Notes: generated by a model not told the origin, from the sequence alone. A stretch of DNA of 64,000 bases from an uncultured Acidobacteriota bacterium (GCA_963796275.1 CAWCKY010000007.1:992001-1056000); one strand, 5' to 3'; positions 1-18,020 are shown, counted from the first letter of the stretch. A program made the numbers and translations.

Positions 1-1401
1 CGGGGCGCCATCCTGCTCCACTACCTTCCAGGTCAGAATCGCACCATTCGTAACGGTGCCGTTAGCCGGCGAGAAACCCGCATCAGCGGCCACCGGGCCC
101 GCTATCGGCGCAAGCAGCCAACGAGTACCGTCGGAAGACTGCCAGCTTGAAAGTGCGCGTGGGGCGACGTCAGCACCCTTCGGAGCCGCCGGCGACGCCG
201 GCGAATAAGCCGGCGTTTGGTAGAGTGGCGTCTTCAGATCGGCGCCATCCTCCAGGGTCGAACTATCCAGCAGATGGACACGACCATCTTTGGTGGTCGC
301 GGCGATCAGGACTCTTCCTTTATATGCGAAGATTACCGGCGTGGAGGTGAATTCATCAGAACCCGGACTGTATTTCCCCTTCACCTTGAGCGTCCCCGGT
401 TCAAGCGCTACCAGCGATACGGGCGACTCTTCACCGGCTCCCGTCGTTACGTAGATCGTTCCATCGGCGCCGAATGCGGGACCAGCTGAACCGGATACGT
501 CGGCTTTCCAGGAGGTAACCTCCTTCGTAGCGAGGTCGAGCGACCACACGCCGTTCGGTACGCCACCGCAGTTCTGGCTGGTTACGACGTAAGCGAAATT
601 ATCGATGACCGTAAGGCCATAAGCGTTGGCATTGGGCGGGAGGAATTTCACCGGCGGTTGGTAATTTGCGCCATTCGACAGATGCATTGCGTGCAGCATC
701 CCATCGCTCGACAGAGCGTAGATTAGAAAAGGTCCTGCCCCTAAAGGGTTACTACTCGGCGCCGGTGGTGTTGTGCGTGTCCGCGGGGGTGTTGGGGGCC
801 GCTGTGGTGTGGGTGGCCGTGGTGCTGGAGGTGGAACGAGTGCAAGAGTTACCGCTCCCTGACCCGCTTCACCGACGGCGCTGCGCGCAGGATTTCTACG
901 CCCGCCTTGTCCTCCACCTCCGGCAGGCATGGATAGAATAGCGGTACCGGTGGGTCGCGTTACATTGGCAGTCATACCCCCGGGACAACCCGGAGTGCCG
1001 ACTTGCGACGGGACGCCTTGCCCGCCACCCGAAGATAAAAGCTTCTGCCACTCCAACCGTCCGAGATCGCTATCTATTACAAAGATGCCATCGGCACTGC
1101 CTCCGACGAATGCCAGGGCCCGAAATCCGCGATATCCGATCAGAAGATCGAGAAGTGCAGGGGGCGTCAGCGAGTTCAACTGTTTCGAGTCGTTTTTTAG
1201 CTTGAGCTTCCAAAGAAACTTGAAACCCGGTTTCTGCATGCTCTCTCTTGAAATCTTCGCGTCCGCCCTGACCCAGGAAGAACGCTGCGCATCGCCATTG
1301 CTCGTCATCCAGTCGGTGGGACCACGTCCCTGCGCTTTTGCATCACTCGTCCCTGCAATTACACAGACGGCACAGATAATGATTTCAGTAAGTCTCCTCA
1401 T
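1..1401 (-). CDS. Secreted PQQ-like beta-propeller protein, 3' end outside the window; paralog of the next gene
   Basis: Not in the ORF track. Partial manual translation from ATG 1401 (GAAGGAG RBS upstream): MRRLTEIIICAVCVIAG...DWMTSNGDAQRSSW...FLWKLKL...CPGGMTA...PVKFLPPN, matching motifs of 1585..3201. Confidence 0.8.
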   Translation of the reverse strand, partial: MRRLTEIIICAVCVIAGTSDAKAQGRGPTDWMTSNGDAQRSSWVRADAKISRESMQKPGFKFLWKLKLKNDSKQLNSLTPPALLDLLIGYRGFRALAFVGGSADGIFVIDSDLGRLEWQKLLSSGGGQGVPSQVGTPGCPGGMTANVTRPTGTAILSMPAGGGGQGGRRNPARSAVGEAGQGAVTLALVPPPAPRPPTPQRPPTPPRTRTTPPAPSSNPLGAGPFLIYALSSDGMLHAMHLSNGANYQPPVKFLPPNANAYGLTVIDNFAYVVTSQNCGGVPNGVWSLDLATKEVTSWKADVSGSAGPAFGADGTIYVTTGAGEESPVSLVALEPGTLKVKGKYSPGSDEFTSTPVIFAYKGRVLIAATTKDGRVHLLDSSTLEDGADLKTPLYQTPAYSPASPAAPKGADVAPRALSSWQSSDGTRWLLAPIAGPVAADAGFSPANGTVTNGAILTWKVVEQDGAP

Positions 1402-1530
1402 CTCAAGGAACTCCTTCGGTATAATTTCTATCCAACGTTGTTTAATCGTTTGTTGTGATTTCACGCTCCAGCGCATCCAGGCGATTGTTGAGATCGTTCA
1501 GCGAAGACCTCGCTGCATCCAGGTCCGCCT

Positions 1531-1564
1531 AGTTTCCAGTTTAGGGTGAGCTTGACTGGAAACT
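1531..1564. terminator. Intergenic hairpin (AGTTTCCAGT...ACTGGAAACT)
   Basis: Perfect 10-bp inverted repeat between the two propeller genes. Confidence 0.45.
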
Positions 1565-1584
1565 GAGGGCTAGCATTTTAACTG

Positions 1585-3201
1585 CTACTGGGCTGAACTA
1601 TCGGCGGCGCTCTTTATGCCGAAACAATACTGCATCCCGTCGAACGTGTTGAGGTAGACCTTACCGTTTGCCATAGAGAGTCCACCCCAGTGACTCCAGG
1701 ACGCGATGTCATCGCCGCTCGACCACAGCTCCTTGCCGGTCTGGGCATCCAGCGCATACAAAATCGCGTGAGACGAGTTCTTGATGCGGTTTTCCGCGGA
1801 GTTGTAGGCGAGTCCGATGTCGAAAGCGGCCTGATCCGTGTCTTCCCCATTGCCGTAGGCAAACACGATTCCATTGGCGATCACCGGCGGCTCAGCATGA
1901 TTCATGTCGCGCGAGAGCCACGCCGGAGCCAGATTCAACTTGCCGTTCTTCTCGTCGACTTTGAAGGCGGCTATCGCACCATACTTGATCGGACCGTGTT
2001 CGATCGGGGCCTTGAACTTCGAATGCTTCGGCCCCCAGAATGGCGTCAGCACCCAGCGCGTCCCTCTCGCATCTTCCCAGGTCGCCATCGATCCCCAGAT
2101 GCCCGCCGACGCGAAGTTGACCTCCTCATTGCAGATCAGCGGCGTGCGGTGCAGAGGCGAGCGGTGGTCATCTCCTCCGATCGATTCCGTATCCATCAGA
2201 TAGACCACGCACTCCTTGCCCGCATCAACCATCAGTTCCCTACCCTTGTAATTGAATATCGCAGGCGTGACTTGCATATCCAGATCGCGCTTGAAGAGCC
2301 ACTCGGCATTGGAAGGCCCATAATAATCGACCAGTTTCGCTGCTTTCGTCTCGGAATCCTGTTTTACCCCGATGATTCCATTTCCGAAAATCCCGTTCTC
2401 GGGATCCCACCGCCCATCGCCTGTGCCTGTGTACATTACGCCCTGGCTGCTGATCGCGGGGCCTGTCCGTCCCCACATCCCCCCGCCCGCCGGTCCCCAG
2501 GAACCGACCTTATCCGTGGCCAGATCGTAGATGTAGACCATGTTCGGATTCCCGCCGCAGCCCTGCGCGGTGTGCGTATAGATCACGTTGTTGAGCAGAT
2601 TCAGCGCGTATGGCTTCCCATTCGGCGGCATGAATTTCGCGGGCGGCGCGATCTCTTCTCCGTCGGCGATGTTCAACCGTCGCAAGGTCCCGTCCCATGC
2701 GGCAGCGTAGATCGTATATTTGCCCGGTGTGCCCGCAGGGCCAATTACAGGCGTCGCGGTGATGCCGCCTGGACACAGCACATACGGAGCCCTGCCGCCA
2801 ACCGGTGGAGTCCAGGTACTCTCGAAATGCTTTTTCCAGAGAAGCTGGCCGGTATCGGCATCTATCGCGTAAATGTTGTCCGAGACGCCCGTCACGATGG
2901 CGATCTGTTTCGGGCCATCTTTGGTTTCGACGCGGCCGGCAATGAGCACCGGCAACAAGTTGTGCATTTGTCGAGGCTCGTTGTCCAGCTTGAGCTTCCA
3001 TAGCAACTTCATGCTTTTGACATTGGCTGTGGTCAGGATCTTTTCCTCCTTTTGCCAGGCGGTCCGCTGCGTGTCTCCGCCGTCGGTGAGCCAATCAGCG
3101 ATTTTTCCGCCTTGCGCCAGATGAGGTTGGTTCCAGACCGCTATGCATCCTAGTAACAACAGCAACAGTCCGATGACTTTAGCTGATATTCGATAGTTCA
3201 C
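1585..3201 (-). CDS. Secreted PQQ-binding-like beta-propeller repeat protein
   Basis: 538 aa with signal peptide; [13 protein letters not shown]-terminal motif; [13 protein letters not shown] and [13 protein letters not shown] propeller repeats. Confidence 0.85.
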
Positions 3202-3418
3202 TTGGGGACTCCCTTCAGATTACACGGAGGCACTCGCTTTTACGCCGGTCAACGTGTCCAGAGTTACAGCAATTGAAGCTATATTTTAAATTGAGTACCT
3301 ATTTGTTTCTTGTGCTGGCGTGAATTTATCCACCCATCGGTATGAAGTCAATGGGAAGAAAGGCAAATGACGAAGAGAAAGCACGCCTCGGAATTCAACA
3401 AAAAATTCCCGAAGAACA

Positions 3419-3442
3419 ATAATGCCCGTTTTCCGGCATTAT
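3419..3442 (-). terminator. Hairpin downstream of the vWA gene
   Basis: ATAATGCC...GGCATTAT inverted repeat just past the stop at 3462. Confidence 0.5.
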
Positions 3443-3461
3443 GCGGTTAGTATTTTCTTGA

Positions 3462-4895
3462 TTACTCGTCTCGATTGCGCAATTTACTGTTTTTATTTTC
3501 GTAGATGCGCGTCTCTTCGAATCCCTGCCTGGGCTTTGAGCCGCTACCGGCTCTTCCCGCTTCGCGCGATTCTCCCGACGCTGCTGGTGAAAATCGCGAC
3601 TTTTGATTGCTGCGCGATGGCGGCAGCTTTATCCCTTTTCGATTGGGAATCTGTGGCAACGGCGTCACCGGCCAGACTATTTTCGGGATGCCCCACCAAA
3701 GCCCTGCCAGTATCGCAAGCGCTATAGCAAACCGGGCCATCAGCCACAACAACTCTTTCCATTGCGCGCTTGGCGGCTGTGGGGCATCCGCGCGTTCCGT
3801 CACCAGCCTCATCTCCTCTCTCGCCATGGGCTTGTCCGGGGCGCAACCGGCCGCGGCGCGGCAATTCCAGGGAATGATGCCTTGCAGGAGTTTCCCGTCG
3901 AGCGTCTCGATCTGGACCTTGAAATTGAGCGATTTCAGCTCGCGATAGTCGCGGCGCCGGGTGAAGAACATGATGCCAATCTGTTCGGTCAGCGACTGCT
4001 TCGCTCCCGCCAGAAATTTGACCAGCGACTGAGTATCATCGGTACTCGAATACTGCTCTTTGTTCTCTCGCGGAAAGACCATTTCCCTCAGCGCGCTGGC
4101 GTCTATCCCGTCGCCTACGCCGATAGTGAATGTCTGAATGTTGGTCTCGTTGAGTTTCTCGATGACGTCATCCAGCTCATCTTTCCTCTGCAACACTTCG
4201 GGGTCATCTCCCGGTTTGACTTCATTCTTCCCATCGGTCAGAACGACGAGCATGTATTGCCGATCCGTATTTTTCAGCCTTTGCAGCCGGTTCAGCGCGA
4301 AAATGGTTGCGCTGTAGAGCGCCGTATTTCCGTCGCGCCGAGCCTGGAGCCGGTCGATCTGAGCCTCCACCTCTTCGCGCGTCTCCGCGAAAGTCGCGCC
4401 ATCGATCTTCGCTTTAACATCGTGGCTTTCGAACGGAGCGATAGCGATTCGGTCGCCGGGACGGAACCTGTCAACCAGAACGCGCGCGGCCTCCTTTGCC
4501 GCATCGAGACGGGTTCGTCCTCCCAGGTTGTTGGAAATCATGCTGCCGCTGAGATCGAACACCATCATTACATCCAGCTTGCCCTCAGTCGCACGGTTTG
4601 AAACTTTGAACGGAATGAAGTCTCTGCCTTCGCGGATGAAAAGCGAGCTGGCTTCGCGAACTTTGATCCTTTGCTGAAGCTCCGCGGCACTGCCGGGCAG
4701 TCTGATCTGGTCGGCGTTCGCAAACTTGAGTTCCGCGTGAAAGTACGGCCGTGGATCGTTCTCATCCTGCACGAGCAGTTCGACCCTTTCAGCCGGTCGA
4801 ATGTCCTGCGCTTTTTCGGTTCGACACCCAAAAGAACAGAGGGCGATGAGGCAAATGTGGAAGATCAGCAATTTTCTCGTATATTTGTCAAACAT
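3462..4895 (-). CDS. vWA domain protein with signal/lipoprotein peptide and C-terminal TM anchor
   Basis: MIDAS DLSGS, NTALY and LTDG motifs; hydrophobic N-terminus ending SFGC; TM LLWLMARFAIALAILAGLWW; start overlaps the upstream stop at 4895. Confidence 0.85.
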   Translation of the reverse strand: MFDKYTRKLLIFHICLIALCSFGCRTEKAQDIRPAERVELLVQDENDPRPYFHAELKFANADQIRLPGSAAELQQRIKVREASSLFIREGRDFIPFKVSNRATEGKLDVMMVFDLSGSMISNNLGGRTRLDAAKEAARVLVDRFRPGDRIAIAPFESHDVKAKIDGATFAETREEVEAQIDRLQARRDGNTALYSATIFALNRLQRLKNTDRQYMLVVLTDGKNEVKPGDDPEVLQRKDELDDVIEKLNETNIQTFTIGVGDGIDASALREMVFPRENKEQYSSTDDTQSLVKFLAGAKQSLTEQIGIMFFTRRRDYRELKSLNFKVQIETLDGKLLQGIIPWNCRAAAGCAPDKPMAREEMRLVTERADAPQPPSAQWKELLWLMARFAIALAILAGLWWGIPKIVWPVTPLPQIPNRKGIKLPPSRSNQKSRFSPAASGESREAGRAGSGSKPRQGFEETRIYENKNSKLRNRDE

Positions 4896-6166
4896 CAGGG
4901 TCTGCCTCCTTTCCCACCGGAGAACATTATTGATGGGTGCGGTTCAATGTAGAAACGGCGGTCTCTCGATATAAGTATGGCGTGCCGTTGCTCGACCAGG
5001 CTGTCGGGGATGTATATCTGGAGTTCGGGAGAGAGCATCGTCGTCGATTGGCTGGCGCTCAACCGGCCGATCACATATTTCTCACCACTATGTATCTCCC
5101 ATTGTTTGTGGCTTTGCTTGTACCTCTTCTGCGTCGCCGGGTCGCTACTGTTGATGAACTCTAGCACTCCCTGACGGGTGAGTATCGGCGCGAGGCTGAT
5201 GAAGGTCGTAATGCCGAGTCCGGCCAGCGCCATCCCAATCGCCTGTGAATTGCTGCCGCCGATGAGATTTGCCAGCATGAGGTAGGCCAGGCCGCCCGTC
5301 ACCCCGCCGGCCATCCCGCCCAGCAAACCATTGAAGACGCGCGAGCGGTTGACCTGCCACCAGCGCAGGCTGATGCCGAATCCGATGAGCGCACCCGTGA
5401 TCAACCAGGAGAGCACATCGGCGATGAACTGGGCGTCGAGCATCGCTTCCCTGATGAACCGTGCGATCCACCCACCGGCCGCACCCGCAACGGCGCCTCC
5501 AACCGCGCCGATCAAGATCCAGAGAGGAACGATTGCGTCTCCGAGCCGACGATCATTGATGCCGACACTCAATCCGCCGATCAAGGCCCCGAGCAGAGTG
5601 AAGGCGATCATATCGTAGTATTCCACATCTACGGCGAGCGGTATCTGTATCAGCGACCAGATGAACCAGCAGATGACTCCGGCCAGCGCGCCGATCAGCG
5701 CCATCTCCCATATCGTTTGCTGAAAGCTGCGCCCCTGCTGTACGCGCTCGATGAAGGTCTTGCTCTGGTCGACCCGGCGCTGCTGATTTTTGATATTGAA
5801 GCGCAGCGTTGTCCGGCCGACGAGGATGTCATCGCCGCTGCGCAACTCAGTTCTCTCGGTTACCTCGTAGAGCTCGCCATCGCGGTTCAATTCGAGCGAT
5901 GGACGTTTGATCGACACCCGAATGACATCATTCGGTCTGACGCCTTGTTCGGGCAAGGTCCGCGAGCCGTTCAGCTCTTTCCCCTCCCACCGGCAGGCGG
6001 GATTTCCCAATCCTTCGCGCCACCCCCTCAGAACAAAGCCATCCCGCTCCTCGAACTCCGCCAGGATATCTCCCAATAGATCATCCAAAACTTCGTTCTC
6101 ATCGATCGTGACCGTGCGATGAATTTCGCCTTCCTGGGTATCGAAATAAATCTGGTATTTTGGCAT
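4895..6166 (-). CDS. YukD/EsaB-like ubiquitin-fold + six Gly-rich TM helices + split FHA-like domain
   Basis: N-terminal ...GKELNGSRTLPEQGVRPNDVIRV (Ubl-like); ELRSGDDILVGRTTLRF (FHA C-terminal strands); six hydrophobic GxxxG-rich segments; YVIGR...DSLVEQRHAIL...FYIE (FHA N-terminal strands). Confidence 0.7.
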   Translation of the reverse strand: MPKYQIYFDTQEGEIHRTVTIDENEVLDDLLGDILAEFEERDGFVLRGWREGLGNPACRWEGKELNGSRTLPEQGVRPNDVIRVSIKRPSLELNRDGELYEVTERTELRSGDDILVGRTTLRFNIKNQQRRVDQSKTFIERVQQGRSFQQTIWEMALIGALAGVICWFIWSLIQIPLAVDVEYYDMIAFTLLGALIGGLSVGINDRRLGDAIVPLWILIGAVGGAVAGAAGGWIARFIREAMLDAQFIADVLSWLITGALIGFGISLRWWQVNRSRVFNGLLGGMAGGVTGGLAYLMLANLIGGSNSQAIGMALAGLGITTFISLAPILTRQGVLEFINSSDPATQKRYKQSHKQWEIHSGEKYVIGRLSASQSTTMLSPELQIYIPDSLVEQRHAILISRDRRFYIEPHPSIMFSGGKGGRP

Positions 6167-6264
6167 TTTGAGAATTGGTTGATAGTTGAGACTTGATAAT
6201 AAATAGTAAAAAATCGGTCGTTAGGGCAGCCTCTTACCTTCAATTGCCAACTATCAACTATCAA

Positions 6265-7023
6265 TTACCCTTCTTCCAATATCCGGGCTTGAGACAAGTG
6301 ATAAATTTCCAAAGGTTGAGGCAAGTGAGGGATCACCCAGGCACAACCGATACAACGGCCGTTCTCCATGTCCCAGCAATGAGTGCACATAGCGCGCGGG
6401 CAGTTTCCGCATTTCCGCAGATCCCTCTCGTCAGCTTCGCGGCGGCAGCGAACGCAGCGGCCGACCGATTGCCGACTGCCCAATCGCTGCTCCCACCAAT
6501 CATCTTCTTCGATCGAGAGCAGAGGCATTCGGGTGCTTACGCAGCCGGCGCAACGAAATGAATCATCATTCCAGCAATTCAGGCAAACCGAATTGCCGCA
6601 GCGCGGGCAGTCTTGCTGCGATGAACTCCTCAGTATCCTTCGGCAGAGCTGACAGCGCGACGCGCGACTGCGCAAACGCCAGAGAATCACGGCGCCGCCG
6701 ACAGCCACCCCCAACACGACGGACCAGGTCTCTATCATTCCCGAGTCACCCGCGCTGATCGGCACTGAGTTGCCCGACAGCCGCATATATCTGCTCAGGA
6801 TGCCCCCTGTCGCGATCCCGATTCCCGCGGCGCAAACAGGAAGATAGAGGTCCAGCGACGAGTAGCCCGTAGTGCCGCGCAGCCCCCACAACCCATACGC
6901 CAGCAATCCCATCAAACCTCCGCACACAAGGATCGCCCCACCGTTCGTCGTCAATCCGACTACGAACTGGATCACTCCGATAACTAATGACGCGATGATT
7001 GTGAGTAGAATCCGCGATCCCAT
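6265..7023 (-). CDS. Membrane protein (about 4 TM) with two Cys8 zinc-finger repeats
   Basis: Two copies of C-x2-C-x11-C-x2-C-x4-C-x2-CW-x6-C-x2-C after the hydrophobic N-terminal half. Confidence 0.75.
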   Translation of the reverse strand: MGSRILLTIIASLVIGVIQFVVGLTTNGGAILVCGGLMGLLAYGLWGLRGTTGYSSLDLYLPVCAAGIGIATGGILSRYMRLSGNSVPISAGDSGMIETWSVVLGVAVGGAVILWRLRSRASRCQLCRRILRSSSQQDCPRCGNSVCLNCWNDDSFRCAGCVSTRMPLLSIEEDDWWEQRLGSRQSVGRCVRCRREADERDLRKCGNCPRAMCTHCWDMENGRCIGCAWVIPHLPQPLEIYHLSQARILEEG

Positions 7024-7164
7024 ACTGAGAATTTAACGCAAAGACAAGGCTTGAGGGAAGAGGCCCGGAGTCCGGGTCTGTGTTCTCGCGCGGGTCTTAT
7101 TTAATCGCAGAAGGTCAGAAACAGTCGTGGATCAAGAACACAGATTCCGGAATCCGGCATTTTC

Positions 7165-8442
<1,278 letters not shown>

Positions 8443-8540
8443 TTATTTACCTCGTTGTTGGATGGTTGCCGGTAATCGGGAGCCGGTGACCCTTTGCCGG
8501 TAACTATCTCGGTATGCCAGCCGTATACCGGCTACCGACT

Positions 8541-9692
8541 TTAACTCAATCCTGCTTCCTGGCGCAGACGCTCGGCACGATTGGTTTGCTCCCAGGTGAA
8601 CCCTTCTTCATTGCGTCCGAAATGCCCGAAGGCGGCGGTACGCCTGTAGATCGGGCGGCGCAGATCGAGCGATTCGATGATTCCCTTAGGCGTGAGTTGA
8701 AAATTGGCGCGGATCAGATCCGAGAGCTTCTCTTCGTCGATCTTCGATGTTCCGCCGCAATCGACGTAAACGGAGACCGGCTCGGCGATCCCGATGGCAT
8801 AGGCAAGCTGCACCTGACAAAGATCGGCGATGCCGGCAGCCACGACGTTTTTGGCGATGTATCGCGCCATATAGCACGCCGAACGGTCCACTTTCGTCGG
8901 ATCTTTACCGGAGAACGCGCCGCCTCCGTGGGGAGCCGCTCCGCCGTACGTATCGACTATGATCTTGCGCCCGGTCAAACCCGTGTCGCCTTGCGGTCCG
9001 CCCACCACGAAACGCCCGGTCGGATTGACATAGAATTTGGTGTTCTCCAGAAATTGAGCGGGGACCGTCGGCTTGATGACGAGGTCGATGATATCTTCAC
9101 GAATTTGATCGGCGCCGACCTCCGGACCATGCTGGGTCGAGATGACAACTGCATCGACTCGCACCGGTTTCCCATTCTCGTATTCGACGGTCACCTGTGA
9201 TTTCCCGTCGGGTCGAAGATAGGTCAGCTTCTGATCGCGCCGTACTCTGCTCAGCCGGTGAACGAGTTGATGCGCGAGCTGTATCGGCAGCGGCATCAAC
9301 TCAGGCGTCTCATTACAGGCGTAGCCGAACATGAGGCCCTGGTCACCCGCTCCTCCCGTATCGACGCCCATGGCGATATCAGGTGATTGCGTGTTGATCG
9401 CGGATATTACCGAGCAGGTCTCCGCATCGAACCCGAATTTAGCCCTCGTGTATCCGATCTCCTTCACCGTTTCGCGAGCGACTCGTGAATAGTCGATCTG
9501 CGCTTTGGTCGTGATCTCTCCGCCGACGATGATGAGGCCGGTCATTGCCATCGTTTCGCAGGCAACCCTTCCCGTCGGGTCTTGCCGCATTACCTCGTCG
9601 AGAATCGCATCTGAAACCTGATCGCATATCTTATCCGGATGTCCTTCCGTCACGGATTCAGAGGTGAACAGGAACTTACCATGTTGTTTCAC
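8541..9692 (-). CDS. metK: S-adenosylmethionine synthetase
   Basis: [19 protein letters not shown] and [16 protein letters not shown] motifs. Confidence 0.98.
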
Positions 9693-9933
9693 TTAGCCCT
9701 CCTTGGCTCATATGATTGCACGTAGATGATAGGCATCAAAGCGGGAAAGAATGTCATCACTTTATACCAGAGTCAAGCAAAGTAAGATTTGAATTTCGTC
9801 AGAATTCTCACATACAGGGCTCTGATAATAAACGCGGCGGCGCAGTGAAACCGATTTTATAGATTACACCTTGGTTTTGCCGACTCGCACGTTTATTATT
9901 TGGCCGCGTTATCATCACTGTACGGAGGAAGAA

Positions 9934-11884
9934 ATGTCGCAACCTGACATCAATTCATTACTCAGAGAAGAACGCGCCTTCGCGCCACCAGCTTCATTCT
10001 CCGCCGCCGCTCATATCAAGAGCCGCGCGGATTACGATCGAGTTTACCAACGTTCCATAGAAGATACCGGATGGATTTTGGTCTGAGATAGCGAGTGATC
10101 TGCACTGGTTCAAAAAATGGGACAAAGTATTGGAATGGAATGAACCGTTTTCCAAATGGTTCACGGGCGGACGAATCAACATCTCGTACAATTGCCTGGA
10201 CCGCCATCTCTCGAGCTGGCGCAAGAACAAAGCTGCCATCATCTGGGAAGGGGAGCCCGGTGATACGCGGACGCTGACCTATCAACAGCTGCATAGCGAG
10301 GTCTGCCGGTTCGCAAATGTGCTCAAATCGCTTGGAATACAGCAGGGTGACCGTGTTGCGATCTATATGCCGATGATACCGGAATTGCCGGTCGCGATGC
10401 TGGCCTGCGCGCGCATAGGTGCGGCTCACTCGGTGATTTTCGGGGGATTTTCCGCGGAAGCGCTGAAAGACAGGATTAATGACGCACAGGCCAAGGCCGT
10501 CGTCACGGCGGATGGAGGGTTTCGTCGCGGCGGGGTAGTGCAACTGAAACCGGCCGTCGACGAAGCGCTCAATTCCTGCCCGAGCGTGACTCAGGTCGTC
10601 GTAGTGCAGCGTTGTAAAAACGAGATAGCGATGAAGGAGGGACGCGACCACTGGTATCACAAGTTGATGGAGAACGCTTCGGATAAATGCGATGCCGAAC
10701 CGTTGGATTCCGAACATCTGCTCTATACCCTCTATACCTCGGGGACGACCGGTAAACCCAAAGGGATCGTCCACACCACTGGCGGTTACTCAGTTCAGAC
10801 TTACATTACCACGAAGTGGGTCTTCGATCTGCACGACGACGACACGTACTGGTGCACGGCGGACATCGGCTGGGTTACCGGCCACAGCTACATTGTTTAC
10901 GGACCACTGCAGAACGGCGCGACGACGGTTATGTACGAAGGGGCTCCAAACAGCCCCGACTTCGGCCGCTTCTGGTCGATCGTCGAACGCCATAAGGTCA
11001 ATATCTTATACACGGCTCCGACAGCAATCCGCACATTCGTTAAGTGGGGCGAGGAGTGGCCGCTGAAATACGATCTTTCTTCACTGCGATTGCTCGGCAC
11101 CGTGGGAGAACCGATCAATCCGGAGGCGTGGATCTGGTACCACAGGGTGATCGGGAAAGAGCGCTGCCCGATAGTCGATACGTGGTGGCAGACCGAGACC
11201 GGCGCAATTATGATCGCACCGATTCCGGGCGCGGTCACGACCAAACCCGGATCTGCGACATTTCCCTTCCCCGGCATAGTCCCCGATATTCAGACGAGAG
11301 ACGGAAAGTCTGTCGGACCTAATCAGGGCGGTTATCTGGTGATCACCAGACCCTGGCCGGGAATGCTGAGAACGATCTACGGCGACCCGGAGCGCTATAA
11401 AAAACAGTACTGGACCGACATTCCCGGGCGCTATTTCACGGGGGACGGCGCACGGCGCGATGAGGAAGGATATTACTGGCTGATGGGCCGCGTCGACGAT
11501 GTCATCAATGTGAGCGGTCACCGGCTAGGAACGATGGAGATCGAAAGCGCACTCGTATCGCACCCGATGGTAGCTGAAGCGGCCGTCGTGGGGCGTCCCG
11601 ATGAGCTCAAAGGTCAGGCCGTTTCGGCATTCGTGACCCTCGAGTCGGGCCATAATCCCACCGCCGAGTTAAAAGATGAGTTGCGGCGGCATGTGCAGAA
11701 GGAGATAGGCGCGATGGCTAAACCGGATGATATCCGCTTCACGGACGCGCTGCCGAAGACGCGTTCCGGGAAGATCATGCGCCGTCTCCTGCGTGACATA
11801 GCTTCCGGCGCGCAAACCGTGGGCGACACGACGACTCTGGAAGACTATACGGTGCTCGCCAAACTACGTGATGAAGAGGAGTAA
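9934..11884 (+). CDS. acs: Acetyl-CoA synthetase with a +1 frameshift at about 10066 (likely sequencing error)
   Basis: [16 protein letters not shown]...RSIED joins [18 protein letters not shown] once one A is removed; [20 protein letters not shown] and [12 protein letters not shown] motifs. Confidence 0.95.
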
Positions 11885-11962
11885 TCCGAGAAGCGAAAGG
11901 CGGAAGGTGGCAAACAATATTTGCTGCTTTCTCCTTTTGCTTCCTTATCGAAAGAAAATCCT

Positions 11963-12472
11963 ATGTATACGAGAATCGCATTTTTATTACTGATTTTATG
12001 TTCGGCCTCAATTGCGCAGGATGTTCCGCCGATCAGAAATTTTTTGCAGGTCAATGAACAATTCTGCACGGGCGGTCAACCTCGTCCTGAACATCTGACC
12101 AAACTCAAGGCCGATGGGGTAAAGGCGATTATCAATCTGAGGCAGCCCAGCGAACACAGGGCTGAAGAAGAAGAGGCTGAGGCGAAAAAAGTCGGATTGA
12201 AGTATTTCAATATCCCGGTCGTCTTCGGGAGCCCGAAAACCGAGCAGGTCGACGAGTTTCTCAAGATTACGGATGATCCGGCGAATCGGCCCGCTTTTAT
12301 TCATTGCACGGCGGCGATCCGAGTGGGTGCATTCTGGATGATCCGCCGCGTCCTGCGCGACGGCTGGACCTTTGAAAAAGCCGAAGAAGAGGCGAAGAAA
12401 ATTGGTCTGGTCAATGCTCCACACCTTAACGAATTCGCGCGCACCTACGTCGATCAGCACAAAAAGAAGTGA
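11963..12472 (+). CDS. Exported DUF442/PTP-like phosphatase or sulfur-transferase domain protein
   Basis: Signal peptide; GGQP, IINLR and HCTAAIR (Cx4R) motifs. Confidence 0.75.
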   Translation: MYTRIAFLLLILCSASIAQDVPPIRNFLQVNEQFCTGGQPRPEHLTKLKADGVKAIINLRQPSEHRAEEEEAEAKKVGLKYFNIPVVFGSPKTEQVDEFLKITDDPANRPAFIHCTAAIRVGAFWMIRRVLRDGWTFEKAEEEAKKIGLVNAPHLNEFARTYVDQHKKK

Positions 12473-12483
12473 ATCAGCCGGCG

Positions 12484-12520
12484 ATGGGTAGGAGGGGTGT
12501 AACTTCCTACCCACCCTCTT
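12484..12520 (+). terminator. Probable intrinsic terminator
   Basis: TGGGTAGGA...TCCTACCCA stem followed by a T-rich tract. Confidence 0.5.
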
Positions 12521-12654
12521 TGATTTTTCTTCCCTCTCCTCGATGCCGCGTTTGACAACATACTGATGCCACCGTATAGTGTGCATTCGTAATTAAACAA
12601 CGCAATAAATTGTGGTTACCCGGTGATCCCCCCCTAGATTACCAAGTATTTTAA

Positions 12655-15600
12655 ATGCTCAGAATCGAGAAACTCTTTCTTCAAGGATTTAAGTCTTTCT
12701 GTGATCCTACCGAGGTCATATTCGATAACGAAGGCATTACCGCGGTGGTCGGCCCCAATGGATGCGGTAAGTCGAATGTCGCGGATGGGCTGAGTTGGGT
12801 GATCGGCGAACAGCGCGCGAAGGCGCTGCGCGGCGGTAAGATGGAAGATGTGATCTTCCAGGGCAGCCGAAACCGCCAACCCTCCGGACTGGCCGAGGTC
12901 ATTCTGACTCTCGTCGTTCACCAGTCCTTTGAGATTCAGGGGGAAGCCAGCCAGCCTGAAACAGAGGCGCTGAGGCAGGCAGAAGAATCGCTCGAACAGG
13001 CTGATGCTGCGATTGAAGCATCAACCGCGGTAGTTGAAGGCGCCGGTGATATCACACCGCTCGAAGGCGCCGCCGTTCCGGAAGGAGCGGGAGCAGAGCA
13101 ATCCGAGAAACAAGCCAATCCGCAATCTACCCAGGCGGCCAAGAAGCGCCGCAGACACGCGATCCCGGGAACCACCAGGGTTTTTCACGAAGGCGAGCGC
13201 ATAACCATTGGCCGCAGGCTGTACCGCACCGGAGAGAGCGAGTATGAGATGGACGGGCGCGCCTGTCGCCTGCGTGACATTCAGGACCTGTTCGCGGGAA
13301 CCGGCCTGGGCGGCGCGCATTACGCGATCATCGAGCAGGGACGGATCGGCCAGGTGCTCTCGGCCAAACCGATGGACCGCAGGGCGCTGATCGAAGAAGC
13401 GGCGGGCATTTCGAAGTTCAAGATGCGCCAGCACACGGCCGAAGTTAAACTCGACGCGTCCAAACAGAATCTCTCGCGCGTCTCCGATATCCTGGCGGAG
13501 ATCGAACGCCAGCAGAATAGCCTCAAACGCCAGGCCGCCCGCGCGCGTCGCTACCAGCGATTGAAACAGGAGTCGCGCGACCTGATGCGCGCCGTCTATC
13601 TTCTGGATTACCGCGCGACCAGGACTACGCTCTCAGACCTGGAATCAACGCTAGGCCAGATATCGACGCGCGAGTCCGATGTAGCCGCATCGATAGCAAC
13701 GCTCGAGGAGGATCATAGTAAGGCGGCGCAGGATGCCCGAGCTACCGAAAGCGCCTTGAACGATACCAGGCAGATTTCCACAAAGACTGACCTGGAGACC
13801 GATCGCGCACGCCAGCAACACACCTATCTAAGCGAGCAATTACATGCGCTCGGCCGCCGGTCCGCGCAGTTTGCACAGGATCAGTCATCGATCACCGAGA
13901 GGCGGCATTTGATCGAGCAGGAGACGGCGCGACTTCGAGAGGAGCAGCACAGGCTCGAATCTGAGATCAATAGTGAGAGCAAGACGCTCGCCGACGCCGA
14001 GGACGAATATCGGCTCAGGCTGGAGAAGGATGCCGAATCGGAGGGCCGGCTCGAGGTGGCGCGGAAGAAGGTTTATGAGAGCGTTACCCATCTCGAACGA
14101 TGGCGACAGCTCAAGCGACAATTTACAGACTCGGTCGATCGCAGCCAATCCAGATTGGCCGGATTGAGCTCAGAGGGCCAGCGTGCGATGGCGCAAGCGC
14201 TCGCCGCCCGGGAACAACACGCCGGACAAACCGAGGAACTGGAGGAGACGACACACAGGCAAGGGCGAATTAACGCCGAACTCTCAGAGGTTACGGACGG
14301 CCTCGCAGAATTGCGCCAGACCCGCGATGAGCGCGAACAAAAGTTGTCCGCGCTTCAGCACGACCTCACCGCTACTGAGCACCGCCTGATGTCTCTTAAC
14401 GAACTGGACCAGAGACACGCCTATTTTTCAGAGGCCGTTCAGGCGTTGATGAATCTGCCCAACTTGCCCCATTCGTCATTAAATGGATTTAAGACGCTCG
14501 GGACACTAGCCGATTTCGTGCAAGTCGCCCCTGAGCACGAGACGATGATCGAGACGGCAATGCGCGACGAACTCCAGTACGTCGTCGTGCCGACATTCGA
14601 TGATGCATTGGGAGCCATTGATTTTCTTAAATCTGAAGGCGCGGGAAGAGCCACTTTCCTCGTTCTTGGGCTCCATGGCAGTGAGCCTATTGAGTTTACT
14701 CAAAATGGCGATGGTCACACATTCCGTTATCAGACGCTGGGAGCGGCACTTGGGCTTCGAACGGAGTTTGCCGATGCGTTCAGGCTGGCGTTGCCTGGGT
14801 TAGCGGGTGCGCGGATAGTCGAGGATGCGGCATTAGCGATTGACGCTTCCATCGTTACTAACGGAGGCAACGGGGGCAACGGTGTAAATTTAAGCAATGG
14901 GTTTAGTTTGGATGATAGTGATGGTCGTGATGATCGTGACGATAAGAAGGATTGGAGCAATGATGGACCCCGGGGTCATGGGGGTAATGGTGATAATAAT
15001 GGGGGCAACGGCGCCGGATGGCCGGTGAGTAATATTGCGCTCACTCTTTCGGGTGAGCGTGTCGTTGCGGGGCGGCTAATTACAGGCGGGAGCGTATCGG
15101 AGAAAGGTGTAGGGGTGCTGGCGCTCAAGCGCGAGATTGGGGAATTGTCCGATCGTCTTGAATCGCTGGCGGCCGATCGGGCTGCAGCCGAGGCGGCATT
15201 AACTTCGGTGAAATCCCAGATCGTCGAGTTCGAGGAAAACGAGCGGCAGTTGAATGAAGAGGGGCGCCGCATCGACAAAAGGATCGCAGTCCTCCGGGAA
15301 CAATTGCAGCAATGCGATCGTGAGATCGAGCGGACTTCGACTCACATTCGTGTAGTCGAGGGGGAGACGCTGCAGGCTGAAGAAGAGTTGCTGGAATCCG
15401 AAACGAAGCTGCAACAGGCAGCCTCCCAGACCGATGAAGCCGAGCAGTCGCGAGCCGATGCTGAAAAGGTCGTCGAAGTCGCTCAGGCGGAGATCGCTGA
15501 ACTTCGCCGGGATGCCGAGCAACGCTTACAGGAACTATCGCGGCGCCGCGCTGAATTTGCCGCGAAAACCGAGCGCCGTAGAGGCGTCCAGAACGACATC

Positions 15601-16753
15601 CGCAGGCTCGAGTCCGAGGCGAACGATCTGGAAAATCGATTGGCGCGTTCGCGCATGGAGGCCGTCGAGGCTGACGATCAAACGAACGCGATACAGTCGT
15701 CTATTCACAACATGGCCGAGCAGATGCAGAAGCTGATGGCTGATCAGCAGCTCCAGGCCGCAGAGCTGGAACAGCGCGGCGCGGCTTTGGCCGCGGCTCG
15801 CGAAAGCCTCGAATCGATCGATCTCGCCTTGCGCTCCGCCCGCGAGGCTGCAACTCAATCCCGCGAGGAGCGCGCGCAGAGGGAGATCGAGATGACTCGC
15901 TTGTCCAGCAATCTCGAGCACCTCATGCATTCCTGCCAGATGGAATTGGGCGAGAATATCGCCGAGGTATCTGAACGACTGGAAGCAGGTACTGACGAGC
16001 AGATGCCCGAGACGGCTCAATTCCCTGCCGGCGATGCAGATCAGGAAGACCAGGAAGATGTGGGAGAGATATCGGTCTCTTTCTGGAACGTTCCGGAAGA
16101 CTTCAACCTCGAGGAAGCAAAGGCGCGGCTTGATGAGTTGCGTTCAAAGATCGATGGACTGGGACCAGTCAATATGATGGCTCTCGAGGAACTGACTGAG
16201 GTCGAAGAGCGCTACCTTTTCCTCATCACACAAAAAGAGGACATAGAGAAAGCGATTTCCGACACACAAGCTGCCATTGCGGAGATCAAACGCCGGTCGC
16301 GGGAAAAATTTGTGGAGGCCTTCCACGCGATCAATGAGTACTTCAAACGAATGTTTGAGGAACTATTCGGCGGCGGGCATGGCGAGATGCGACTGATCGA
16401 CGAGACCGATGTCCTCGAAAGCGGGATCGAGATAATCGCGCAGCCGCCCGGGAAGCGGCTGCAGAATGTCCTTCTGCTATCCGGCGGAGAAAAAGCGATG
16501 GCCGCGCTCTCACTGGTGATGGCGATTTTCAAGTATCGCCCTAGCCCGTTCTGCCTGCTCGATGAGGTCGATGCGCCACTCGATGACATGAATATTGGGC
16601 GGTTCGCCGACAAGATACTCGAGATGAGCACAAATACTCAGTTTATGGTCATCACCCACAGCAAGAGGACTATGGAAGCGGCGAAGGTTCTTTATGGCGT
16701 AACGATGGAAGATACCTGGTGTGTCAAAACTGATATCGGTAAAGTTGACTTGA
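12655..16753 (+). CDS. smc: Chromosome segregation protein SMC with a +1 frameshift at about 16714 near the C-terminus
   Basis: GFKSF, Walker A GPNGCGKSN, LLSGGEK, LDEVDAPLD; removing one A restores the canonical end GVTMEDPGVSKLISVKLT* (TGA 16751-16753). Confidence 0.95.
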
Positions 16754-18020
16754 GGTCGATCTTGTTTGAGAAGGAAGATCGATCTTCTACCACGTTCTCC
16801 AGAATCAGGACCTTGTACAGCAGCCTGCCGAATTCCTTAGCGACGATCGAACGCAGGTGAACGCCGCGCAGCAGCTCGGCTCCCGGTTTCGCCGGTATAC
16901 GGCCGATCAGATGCTTCCGATACCTGAGCCGGACGCTCTCCGGCCGATTCTCGTCGAGTAATCTTTCAGCAGCCTCCAACCCATCGTATAGGTCTATTTC
17001 AACTTCGCCCCTTCCCGCATTCGCCTTTGTCGATCCGCGCGCCTGAAATCCACTCAACTCCTGTTTCGTCTTCAATTCGCTGGCCACACCGACCCAATAA
17101 AAATAATCGAGCACGATGTCTACCAACGATCGCCAGCGATATCGCCGGCGCGCCAGTTTTAGCAATCTCAGATGCAGACGGAGGATGAAGACGATGGTAC
17201 GGGCGGCTCTGGGGCTCTGGAATACTAAGGGCCGCAGGATGCGCGTCAGATTTGAGAAAGGCAGGTTGTAATGGATCAAGGGGAGTGCGGGGATAATTTC
17301 GGGGTGGCGGATGCCGAGCAGGACGTCCCCTCTTCCCTCGTCCTGTTTACGCCTGAATGAGCCATTGAGGTCACGGCATTCGTAATGGTCGGCCATAGCA
17401 TCGGCGGCGAATATTAACTCGGCGCCCGCTTTGATGAGGCGCACGCCCAATTCGTAATCTTCATGCGCGTGGCTTGCGGAGAATCCTGTGTCAAATCCGC
17501 CGGTGCTTGCAAAGAGTTCGGCCCGGATTGAGAAGTTGCCGCTCAGAAAGTCGCGAAATGTGAAGCGATGGCCCTGTTCGCACATACGATAGAACATGCC
17601 CATCCACCATCTCCGCAGCTCTATCCAATATAAATCAGTGTGATCAGGGATAACCGGACGTGAGTATCCAACCACAACTCGATCCGGTTTCTGAAGACGC
17701 TCGTGAGCTCTTATGAAACCGGGCGCGGGCACGATATCGTCATCGATGAAGATGAGCAGTCGGCCTTCAGCTCCGGCTGCTCCAAAGTTGCGTGCGTCGG
17801 CCGCCCCCCTCCCAGGCACCTCAAAAACTTTCATCTTGAATGGAGCTGTGTAGTCCTGAGCCATAGCGATGGTATCATCGATACAACGGTCAGCCGCTAC
17901 AATAACTTCCAGCTGATGCATCGGATAGTCTTGAGAGCATAAGGCGTCGAGCGTGCGCTTCAAGGCATCGCTCCGGTTATGGGTGGGAATGATGATGCTG
18001 ATTTTTGGACTGTGTGTCAT
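16692..18020 (-). CDS. Glycosyltransferase family 2
   Basis: ISIIIPTHNR, ARNFGA, FIDDD and HEDYELG motifs; 3' end overlaps smc convergently. Confidence 0.9.
   Translation of the reverse strand: MTHSPKISIIIPTHNRSDALKRTLDALCSQDYPMHQLEVIVAADRCIDDTIAMAQDYTAPFKMKVFEVPGRGAADARNFGAAGAEGRLLIFIDDDIVPAPGFIRAHERLQKPDRVVVGYSRPVIPDHTDLYWIELRRWWMGMFYRMCEQGHRFTFRDFLSGNFSIRAELFASTGGFDTGFSASHAHEDYELGVRLIKAGAELIFAADAMADHYECRDLNGSFRRKQDEGRGDVLLGIRHPEIIPALPLIHYNLPFSNLTRILRPLVFQSPRAARTIVFILRLHLRLLKLARRRYRWRSLVDIVLDYFYWVGVASELKTKQELSGFQARGSTKANAGRGEVEIDLYDGLEAAERLLDENRPESVRLRYRKHLIGRIPAKPGAELLRGVHLRSIVAKEFGRLLYKVLILENVVEDRSSFSNKIDLKSTLPISVLTHQVSSIVTP

Follow-up and report, generated by a model that had tools for sequence, protein, structure and literature searches.

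Three co-oriented open reading frames (ORFs), here called genes A, B and C, lie on the minus strand at positions 3462-7023 of a 64,000-nucleotide stretch of DNA (the window) from an uncultured soil acidobacterium (GCA_963796275.1 CAWCKY010000007.1:992001-1056000). Our analysis indicates that this trio is probably the conjugation-free descendant of an Acidobacteriota module that lies beside a divergent contractile machine resembling type VI secretion systems (T6SS). Homology, synteny, loss of the enzymes that activate (E1) and conjugate (E2) a ubiquitin-like protein (Ubl), a gene fusion, a domain permutation and purifying selection support this descent. The locus consists of the following elements:
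6265-7023, minus strand: gene A, an ORF for a 252-aa protein with four transmembrane (TM) helices and two predicted cytoplasmic C4C4 RING-like fingers
4895-6166, minus strand: gene B, an ORF of 423 aa with a Ubl domain, the C-terminal half of an FHA domain, six TM helices and the N-terminal half of the FHA domain
3462-4895, minus strand: gene C, an ORF for a 477-aa predicted exported vWA protein with a TM anchor and a cytoplasmic basic tail
4893-4897, minus strand: TGATG stop/start overlap, in which the TGA of B and the ATG of C share one base (cccTGATGttt)
3419-3442, minus strand: terminator-like hairpin, starting 20 nt beyond the stop codon of C

A and B are separated by 98 nt, and an AGGAGG sequence lies 9 nt upstream of the B/C overlap. 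The terminator scan as a whole was not enriched (4 sites against 4.6 expected), so the hairpin is argued from its position. A sequence-only reading had described three co-oriented genes with a B/C overlap and a closing hairpin, coding for a protein with about four TM helices and two C4C4 fingers, a protein with a Ubl N-terminus, six Gly-rich helices and FHA-like strands, and a vWA protein with an intact metal ion-dependent adhesion site (MIDAS), signal, TM anchor and basic tail. All of these were recovered, the hairpin at 3442-3419. It had also noted that no kinase, E1, E2, JAB or FtsK gene is adjacent, and indeed none is present in window 1-14000. What it missed is that the FHA-like strands are the two halves of one permuted domain and that the fingers, judged at family level, appear to be of the Prok-RING_2 family.

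Related loci, taken from a scan of one genome per species and sorted by tblastn with A, B and C, number 60, almost all of them from Acidobacteriota, and fall into two types. In the fused type (L001-L006) A and B are adjacent in 6/6 loci and C adjoins them in 5/6, the contig of the sixth ending inside B. The remaining 54 loci, from Terriglobia, Bryobacterales, Vicinamibacterales and others, are unfused: the counterpart of B residues 1-85 is a separate small ORF directly after A, the counterpart of residues ~140-420 is a separate gene directly before the C homologue, and homologues of all parts of the trio are found together in 50/54. Co-occurrence elsewhere had been set beforehand as the test that could refute the trio as a unit, and these counts bear it out. 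Pfam annotation of the unfused set (L007, from Bryobacterales, plus 70 ORFs from eight further loci) gave the order ThiF E1 with Zn ribbon, A, Ubl and UQ_con-like E2, followed by a six-TM protein with an FHA domain (TM6-FHA), vWA, VipA/TssB-like, TssC-like, baseplate-like and VgrG genes; the domains supported by Pfam in these relatives are ThiF, UQ_con, VWA, TssC, VipA, the VgrG domains and ImpA_N. Among the 60 loci the components are distributed as follows:
A: 60/60 loci
E1: 52/60 loci, missed in L001-L006 and in L013 and L033, both truncated at their edge
E2: 52/60 loci, missed in L001-L006 and in L023 and L057, both truncated at their edge
TM6-FHA: 55/60 loci
VipA-like gene after the vWA gene: 49/60 loci
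TssC-like gene: 39/60 loci, the others being truncated where the locus stops

A tree of the finger region (61 rows) places the seven fused rows in one split with support of 99/96, beside L055, which, in a tree whose root is not established, is compatible with a single origin of the Ubl fusion. Five loci (L005, L006, L014, L015 and L033) carry non-acidobacterial titles (Heliomicrobium, Desulfobacteraceae, Methylomirabilota, Arcobacter and Verrucomicrobia), yet the tree nests them among acidobacterial sequences; the labels may reflect mis-binning or transfer. The Bryobacterales loci L007, L009-L013, L015 and L017 contain an insert of ~6 kb between E2 and TM6-FHA (L007:2319-7924) that codes for a Ser/Thr kinase-FGE-sulfatase fusion, two DUF4384 proteins and a caspase-PEGA-TPR protein.

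In the unfused relatives the free Ubl and its enzymes look active, as judged from conserved residues. The free Ubl is 86 aa long in nearly all loci and ends in Gly in 52/52 cleanly delimited copies (NG in 50, IG in one and VG in one). The E2 alignment retains H90, P91, N92 and C101 (the HPN…Cys motif), and the E1 alignment retains the glycine-rich nucleotide loop and four CxxC pairs. The Vicinamibacterales locus L055 (L055:4612-6166) has a Ubl-E2 fusion through a GGG junction followed by a gene for a Prok-JAB peptidase; with this query no other JAB came up in the 60 loci.

The fused clade presents a different picture. In the window genome (9.46 Mb, 94.7% complete) a hidden Markov model (HMM) of the E2 family, built from 51 sequences, has no match even at E<=10, and the Ubl HMM finds B only. 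With the E2 profile the best E value across the fused-type genomes (5/5) is 0.2, which is nothing credible, while all five unfused genomes give E<=8e-48. The E1 profile scores 300-513 bits over its full length in the unfused genomes (5/5) and at most 66 bits over positions 22-175 of 372 in the fused ones (5/5), a level that corresponds to the background of housekeeping ThiF-like genes in every genome. In the window genome these ThiF-like genes are C6:389480-390952, with an adjoining JAB-like ORF, and C3:1322724-1323752. As the five fused genomes are kin and may be incomplete, being metagenome-assembled genomes (MAGs), the loss of E1 and E2 should be read as one consistent pattern rather than as five separate events. 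The suggestion of the sequence-only reading that partners act in trans was not supported: neither the window genome nor four other fused-type genomes yielded a cognate E1 or E2. The cognate E2 and E1 that a RING-type ligase (E3) requires are missing from the window genome and present in 52/54 unfused loci. A search for longer proteins with the free Ubl found nothing, which is weak evidence. In the complete Acidobacteriaceae genome of L060, a second and more distant E1 (170 bits) and E2 (31 bits) lie at G008:C1:892972-898222, ~660 kb from the first, and may represent a paralogous Ubl system.

B is where the fusion and the permutation are seen. An AlphaFold 2 (AF2) model from 29 homologues, with a mean predicted local distance difference test (pLDDT) score of 77.4 and a predicted TM-score (pTM) of 0.53, arranges the chain as a β-β-α-β…β unit (residues 1-88), five strands (91-126), six helices (138-329) and six strands (332-409). 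The regions of the protein are:
5903-6166, minus strand: B residues 1-88, YukD/EccD-like beta-grasp (Ubl), by structure match and homology to the free 86-aa Ubl
5777-5902, minus strand: B residues 89-130, predicted FHA C-half ahead of the TM block, aligning to the C-terminus of the unfused TM6-FHA proteins
5174-5728, minus strand: B residues 147-331, six Gly-rich TM helices, by hydropathy, alignment and AF2
4922-5173, minus strand: B residues 332-415, predicted FHA N-half, by the Pfam FHA profile and colinearity with the FHA N-half of unfused homologues

The N-terminal ~88 residues (pLDDT 74-86) were expected to form a beta-grasp and are modelled as one: in an all-against-all structure search the best match is the Ubl of EccD5 (7b7j_A; Z 11.3, root mean square deviation (rmsd) 1.9 Å, 84 residues), followed by ubiquitin, SUMO and NEDD8-type chains at Z 9-10. 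Foldseek gave TM-scores of 0.57-0.73 against ubiquitin/SUMO chains with no row at E<=0.001, and the Pfam YukD profile matched neither B at E<=1 nor the free Ubl of L007 at E<=0.1. The Ubl of B is 47-59% identical to the free Ubl ORFs of the 54 loci. It runs on into ..SIKRPSLELNRDG.. without a stop, leaving no exposed C-terminal Gly; at the junction with the FHA part the terminal ..NG is lost and there is no Gly-Gly. Homology of the whole of B to EccD was considered and rejected, as the whole-chain rmsd is 13-26 Å (13 Å for 7b9f_X).

Alignment to the unfused TM6-FHA proteins indicates that the FHA domain of B is circularly permuted around the TM block, giving the order Ubl, FHA C-half, six TM helices, FHA N-half. 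B residues 147-~415 align with residues 2-~275 of these proteins (8/8), and B residues 102-~130 align with their extreme C-terminus, ~287-315 (8/8); by tblastn the permutation is in frame in four loci. The Pfam FHA profile (PF00498) matches B 364-410 at profile positions 1-38 of 67 (17.9 bits, below the cut-off of 20.7). The unfused proteins begin at the amphipathic segment preceding the TM block and are matched through position 67, with unfused or non-permuted relatives covering positions 7-67 or 1-67. Since the canonical FHA order is universal, the permuted form is the derived one; P0088, a 416-aa protein from a global library, has the Ubl-TM6-FHA arrangement with a complete canonical FHA (profile positions 1-67) and is a possible intermediate toward it. 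Because the number of helices is even, both FHA halves would lie on the same, cytoplasmic, side of the membrane and could reassemble. The glycine zipper of TM helix 5 (G283/284/287/288/291/292) is invariant. At E<=0.001 the homologues of B number 82; nearly all measure 400-437 aa and are colinear down to 46% identity, and those that are named are labelled Blastocatellia or Acidobacteriota.

C contains a vWA domain (Pfam VWA, PF00092, 62.3 bits against a cut-off of 23.8) with an intact MIDAS, formed by DLSGS at 114 and conserved NT and TDG motifs; the signal, the TM segment at ~383-407 and the basic tail are predicted from hydropathy. In an alignment with 22 homologues the signal segment, the D-x-S-G-S/NT/TDG motifs, the TM W…P…WP motif and the ..TR[IML] motif of the tail are all conserved. 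The regions of C are:
4815-4895, minus strand: C residues 1-27, predicted signal peptide or signal anchor, by hydropathy
4032-4574, minus strand: C residues 108-288, vWA domain with intact MIDAS, by Pfam, motif and alignment
3675-3749, minus strand: C residues 383-407, predicted TM anchor with conserved W/P motif, by hydropathy and alignment
3465-3674, minus strand: C residues 408-477, basic Ser/Thr-rich tail, predicted cytoplasmic, with conserved ..TR[IML] motif, by alignment

B and C are linked by fusions in other genomes. In G138, of the same class as the window genome, locus L063 encodes a 751-aa protein composed of a canonical-order TM6-FHA, a hydrophobic segment, a vWA domain and a TM anchor, in which the segment equivalent to the signal peptide of C serves as a seventh TM helix. 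Two more TM6-FHA-vWA fusions of this kind are P0175 (848 aa) and P0181 (836 aa), the latter matching the Ubl at its N-terminus, and eight further library proteins of 724-791 aa that begin with the TM6-FHA part are candidates for the same architecture. The fusions and the TGATG coupling suggest that B works with C as a single unit whose vWA domain lies outside the cytoplasm. The neighbours of the L063 fusion (L063:4955-13576) are three unannotated genes, a GlnD/GlnE-like nucleotidyltransferase, a HEAT-repeat protein and a small radical-SAM/4Fe-4S protein.

A is modelled with high confidence (pLDDT 91.2) as four helices followed by a part with 16 Cys, arranged as two CxxC-x11-CxxC-x4-CxxC-x7-CxxC units whose spacing would fit a binuclear, cross-brace type fold with eight ligands per unit. 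Its regions are:
6667-7023, minus strand: A residues 1-119, four TM helices, by hydropathy, with AF2 helices 2-23, 28-47, 56-83 and 91-119
6541-6654, minus strand: A finger 1, C124...C161, C4C4, by CxxC spacing, with W151 invariant
6343-6456, minus strand: A finger 2, C190...C227, C4C4, aligning with RING-H2 domains, with W217 conserved

Across the A family (n=36) all 16 Cys are invariant or nearly so and a WW(D/E) linker is conserved. Family-level matches point to Prok-RING_2 for the fingers: at E<=0.1 this profile matches 24/36 members (best 4.9e-7) and Prok-RING_1 matches 12/36, and the A orthologue of L014 reaches the Prok-RING_2 cut-off with 22.5 bits. A profile of the A family gave weak matches among PDB sequences to the RING of RLIM (E 0.01), NOT4 (0.04) and Arkadia (0.05), and the invariant Trp past the sixth Cys (W217 in finger 2) aligns to the RING Trp. 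The VIA-wide search matched only the four-helix bundle and was uninformative for the fingers, and NCBIfam returned nothing useful for A or B. Since the Ubl of the window is internal with no free Gly and E1 and E2 are absent, A cannot be a conventional E3 there.

The contractile machine that accompanies the module appears, from its profile matches, to be divergent and T6SS-like. In the window genome its sheath genes are on the same strand as the trio, 26 kb downstream of C, at 953-970 kb of contig C7:
C7 967890-969632: baseplate-like 580-aa gene
C7 967023-967505: VipA-like gene
C7 965668-967026: TssC-like gene
C7 962488-964119: VgrG gene
C7 953293-957801, minus strand: PAAR-RHS gene with Imm49

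Pfam supports this cluster through TssC (72.7 bits, cut-off 25), VipA (30 bits, cut-off 24), the VgrG domains and the PAAR-RHS gene. In L001 and L002, whose B proteins are 90% identical to that of the window, C is followed contiguously by the 580-aa gene (82% identical), VipA and TssC, which argues that the window genome gained an insertion or rearrangement between C and the cluster. L055 has TssK- and TssA-like genes as well. Two genomes have TssM (PF06761): the window genome (G000), where it lies with TssL on contig C3, and G008, where it is 4.8 Mb away from the module. No match came from G001-G007, G009 and G128 (G128 being probably the same assembly as G003), MAGs among these having unknown completeness. 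The distal end of the T6SS-like cluster comprises a 1502-aa PAAR-RHS protein (L061:1293-5801, minus strand) and then an Imm49-like gene, and between TssC and VgrG there is a small ribonuclease-like ORF (L061:12174-12533). Another T6SS region, canonical in type, is present at C3:1481000-1507000 (TssL at C3:1489950, TssM at C3:1492223), near which tblastn matches the Ser/Thr kinase-FGE-sulfatase, DUF4384 and caspase-TPR gene types of the L007 insert.

All three genes are under purifying selection. Measured against L001 and L002 (dS 0.65-1.3), dN/dS is 0.15 for A, 0.06-0.07 for B and 0.15 for C. Broken down by region, B gives 0.04 (Ubl), 0.09-0.14 (FHA C-half), 0.08 (TM block) and 0.04-0.05 (FHA N-half). 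The distribution of the module is patchy: it occurs in 3/151 sampled genomes of the class, the window genome included, and in 8/401 genomes of the phylum when P0088 is the query. A library of 1.84 billion proteins yielded 152 representatives at E<=0.001, of which only P0083, P0084 and fragments have the full permuted architecture. Other members of the fusion network are Ubl-E2 fusions (P0144 and the L055 protein), P0095 (649 aa), a protein kinase-TM6-FHA fusion, and P0193 (728 aa), a Ubl-DUF4062-protein kinase fusion; the last two hint at a kinase layer in some versions. A metagenome scan with P0088 returned one irrelevant fragment and no gene context for the non-permuted Ubl-TM6-FHA form.

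The descent that we consider probable can be set out as follows. The ancestral module would have comprised a ThiF-type E1, A as a presumed membrane E3, a free Gly-ended YukD/EccD-like Ubl and an HPN...Cys E2, together with two proteins encoded directly upstream of the sheath genes: a six-TM protein ending in an FHA domain, and a vWA protein that is exported. In the window clade E1 and E2 would have been lost, the Ubl joined to the N-terminus of TM6-FHA and the FHA permuted round the TM block, so that a Ubl formerly attached by E1, E2 and a membrane RING protein would now be a permanent part of its partner. A, B and C may form a single inner-membrane complex in which C presents a metal-dependent vWA domain, for adhesion or sensing, to the periplasm, B supplies a platform in the cytoplasm from its reassembled FHA sandwich and the Ubl permanently joined to it, and the RING fingers of A dock on the Ubl of B rather than catalyse transfer. 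As output, the A-B-C complex would recruit or license the T6SS-like baseplate and sheath, anchoring the machine or permitting its use. The physical contacts, the topology and the link to firing in this scheme are those we infer. A more far-reaching version, which we put forward only tentatively and regard as rather unlikely, takes A/B/C as the envelope-anchoring complex of a T6SS subtype free of TssJLM, licensed by Ubl modification of the FHA subunit; the window clade would then be a natural 'constitutively modified' mutant in which the fusion replaces E1-E2-E3 and would in this way name the physiological target of a bacterial RING E3.

Several observations weigh against the reading of the trio as such a descendant. 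MAGs, whose completeness is unknown, make up most of the genomes used. A hairpin closes the trio, its flanks are housekeeping genes (ahcY, metK), and ~26 kb of unrelated genes precede the sheath, so that co-regulation of trio and sheath may at most be supposed. In L008 and L018 the E1-A-Ubl-E2 set occurs without TM6-FHA or vWA within 8 kb. Against the NCBIfam equivalog cut-offs, the sheath and baseplate matches are far below, except for TssA in L055. The A protein of the window scores 14.8 bits (E 0.034) with Prok-RING_2 (PF14445), below the cut-off of 22.4, and Foldseek gave no row at E<=0.001 for the fingers, its weak rows being HOIP RBR, double PHD, FYVE and the RING of RNF12. Reassembly of the two FHA halves of B is suggested by pLDDT values of 74-87 alone. 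Of the residues that define the FHA motif (Arg of GR, Ser of SxxH and Asn of NG), which we take to be those that bind phosphothreonine, the B of the window has GR where most homologues have GS, Glu stands in the place of Ser (Ala in the majority of homologues), and the permutation breaks the domain at the NG loop. With the Ser replaced and the NG loop broken, the FHA of B is better seen as a structural module than as a phosphothreonine reader, and classical FHA signalling by B is doubtful.

Some of these points are shared by the view that the trio works on its own as a trans-envelope sensor or signalling complex and that the sheath neighbourhood in relatives is island co-residence only. The hairpin, the position between housekeeping genes, the 26 kb to the sheath and the separation of the Ubl set from TM6-FHA and vWA in L008/L018 would all suit it, as would the L063 fusion, around which none of the 10 ORFs scanned is a T6SS gene. 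We nevertheless judge it unlikely, as a VipA-like gene directly after the vWA gene in 49/60 loci, across several orders, and in L001/L002 is hard to square with chance co-residence. The sequence-only reading had suggested a trans-envelope sensing or signalling complex, of which 'trans-envelope complex' is still a fair description; the context in relatives is a T6SS-like sheath, baseplate and VgrG cluster with a complete E1-E2-RING-Ubl set, and not type VII secretion. Quite improbable, too, is a conflict or abortive-infection module in which the glycine-zipper bundle of B perforates the membrane under the control of a vWA sensor and the Ubl/RING pair. The patchy distribution, the invariant zipper and the L007 operon, with caspase-TPR, STK-FGE and two DUF4384 genes between E2 and TM6-FHA, would be expected of it, and vWA systems with E1, JAB, prokaryotic RING, Ubl-E2 and caspase effectors are described in the available part of Kaur et al. 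2020 (PMC7159879). Yet the caspase insert is limited to one sub-clade whereas the sheath linkage is the conserved feature, no MoxR or FtsH partner is present in the ORFs scanned, and PADLOC returned no match for A, B or C.

That the Ubl of B is still released by an unrecognised protease and conjugated by E1 and E2 encoded elsewhere seems to us very unlikely. Two ThiF-like genes in the genome, the first beside a JAB-like ORF, and the coexistence of the L055 Ubl-E2 (GGG junction) with JAB would allow it; the ThiF matches, though, cover the Rossmann part only, at the background level of all genomes, the E2 HMM is silent at E<=10, and the Ubl-FHA junction, lacking ..NG or Gly-Gly, is conserved with its flanking domains in one frame in 82 homologues. 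A functionless remnant decaying after the loss of E1 and E2 is already disfavoured and hardly credible: the catalytic partners are gone and the trio lies apart from the sheath cluster, but dN/dS is 0.04-0.15, the reading frames and the MIDAS are intact, and all 16 Cys are present. We thus retain descent from a Ubl-conjugating module beside a T6SS-like machine as the probable reading.

Comparison with known systems places the trio near several of them. Like EccD, B joins a YukD/EccD-type beta-grasp to a polytopic membrane domain of a secretion apparatus, and the likeness to EccD and the type VII secretion system (T7SS) claimed from sequence alone stands insofar as the Ubl is closest to that of EccD. 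It does not extend further, as B has 6 TM helices and not the 11-12 of EccD, genes for EccC/FtsK ATPase, WXG100 and mycosin were not seen by the trio or in the scanned ORFs of relatives, the phylum is another one and the machine beside the module is T6SS-like. YukD and EccD were described by Iyer et al. 2006 (PMC1779556), where, in the part of the text available, YukD is reported not to be conjugated; the free Ubl of the relatives, in contrast, ends in Gly and is encoded beside E1 and E2. The unfused relatives also resemble the prokaryotic Ubl-E1-E2-RING systems in their ThiF E1 with Zn ribbon, HPN...Cys E2, Gly-ended Ubl and Prok-RING_2 TM protein, from which the window version differs in having no E1 or E2 and a Ubl that is an internal N-terminal domain without a free Gly. 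An E1-E2-RING-YukD-like-Ubl core was reportedly predicted by Burroughs, Iyer & Aravind in 2011 (Mol Biosyst), said to be the source of the Pfam families Prok-RING_1 and Prok-RING_2. The fused, permuted form without E1/E2 is not described in the literature searched, the coverage of the TM6-FHA/vWA/T6SS-like context by the 2011 paper being outside this comparison.

PpkA carries a periplasmic vWA domain. The T6SS threonine-phosphorylation pathway to which it belongs (PpkA/TagE, Fha1/TagH, PppA) resembles the module in that T6SS-type sheath genes are accompanied by genes for an FHA protein and for a membrane protein whose vWA domain is periplasmic, and the kinase-TM6-FHA fusion P0095 and the Ser/Thr kinase of the L007 operon add to the likeness. 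The differences are that C has no kinase domain (no Pkinase match was found), that the FHA of B is permuted, on six TM helices and without the phosphate-binding Ser whereas Fha is soluble, and that the window family adds a Ubl and RING layer. This pathway is treated in a 2026 review of T6SS accessory factors (PMC13584744), the available text of which contains 0 occurrences of 'ubiquitin', 'von Willebrand' or 'Acidobacter', and the literature searched held no paper linking T6SS with FHA, vWA and Ubl in Acidobacteria. The vWA-MoxR/FtsH ternary conflict systems, as far as the accessible part of PMC7159879 describes them, share with our loci a vWA domain, a Ubl-conjugation set with a RING-type E3, Ubl-E2 with JAB (as in L055) and caspase-like genes (L007); they differ in that no MoxR AAA+, FtsH or EAD adaptor occurs in the ORFs scanned around the module, C is a predicted exported protein with a membrane anchor, and a contractile sheath is what is conserved next to the module. 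B is likewise reminiscent, in having a degenerate FHA on the predicted cytoplasmic face of a membrane component, of the YscD/PrgH family and EssC, to which it has no sequence relationship. The YscD/PrgH family of the type III secretion system and EssC of the T7SS have degenerate FHA-like domains on the cytoplasmic face without the canonical phosphothreonine residues; these are unpermuted and carried on one or two TM helices.

The surroundings of the trio are AhcY and MetK upstream, two PQQ-type propellers downstream, and an acetyl-CoA synthetase-like ORF. The propellers are a tandem, secreted PQQ/BamB-like pair on the minus strand directly downstream of the trio, at window 1-1476 (leaving the window) and 1585-3201, the former with a long Pro/Thr-rich insert. 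Further away, window 12655-16860 (plus strand) holds an SMC-like ORF of 1401 aa with an odd C-terminal extension beyond the ATPase tail and, in its middle, a low-complexity Gly/Asn/Asp-rich insert (…NGGNGGNG…GGNGDNNGGNG…).

B offers a clear natural example of an FHA domain that is circularly permuted and interrupted by a membrane insert of six helices. Bacterial E1-E2-RING-Ubl sets have been predicted by comparative genomics, and we know of no identified substrate for them. As the enzymes have been lost and the Ubl has become covalently part of the TM6-FHA protein, that protein or its complex is the likely partner of the Ubl, in the manner of a 'Rosetta stone'. The locus also connects a ubiquitin-like layer with a T6SS-like contractile machine, a link not found in the T6SS literature searched. 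The unfused form exists in isolates (Granulicella and Terriglobus records are among the loci), so that ordinary genetics is applicable to it.

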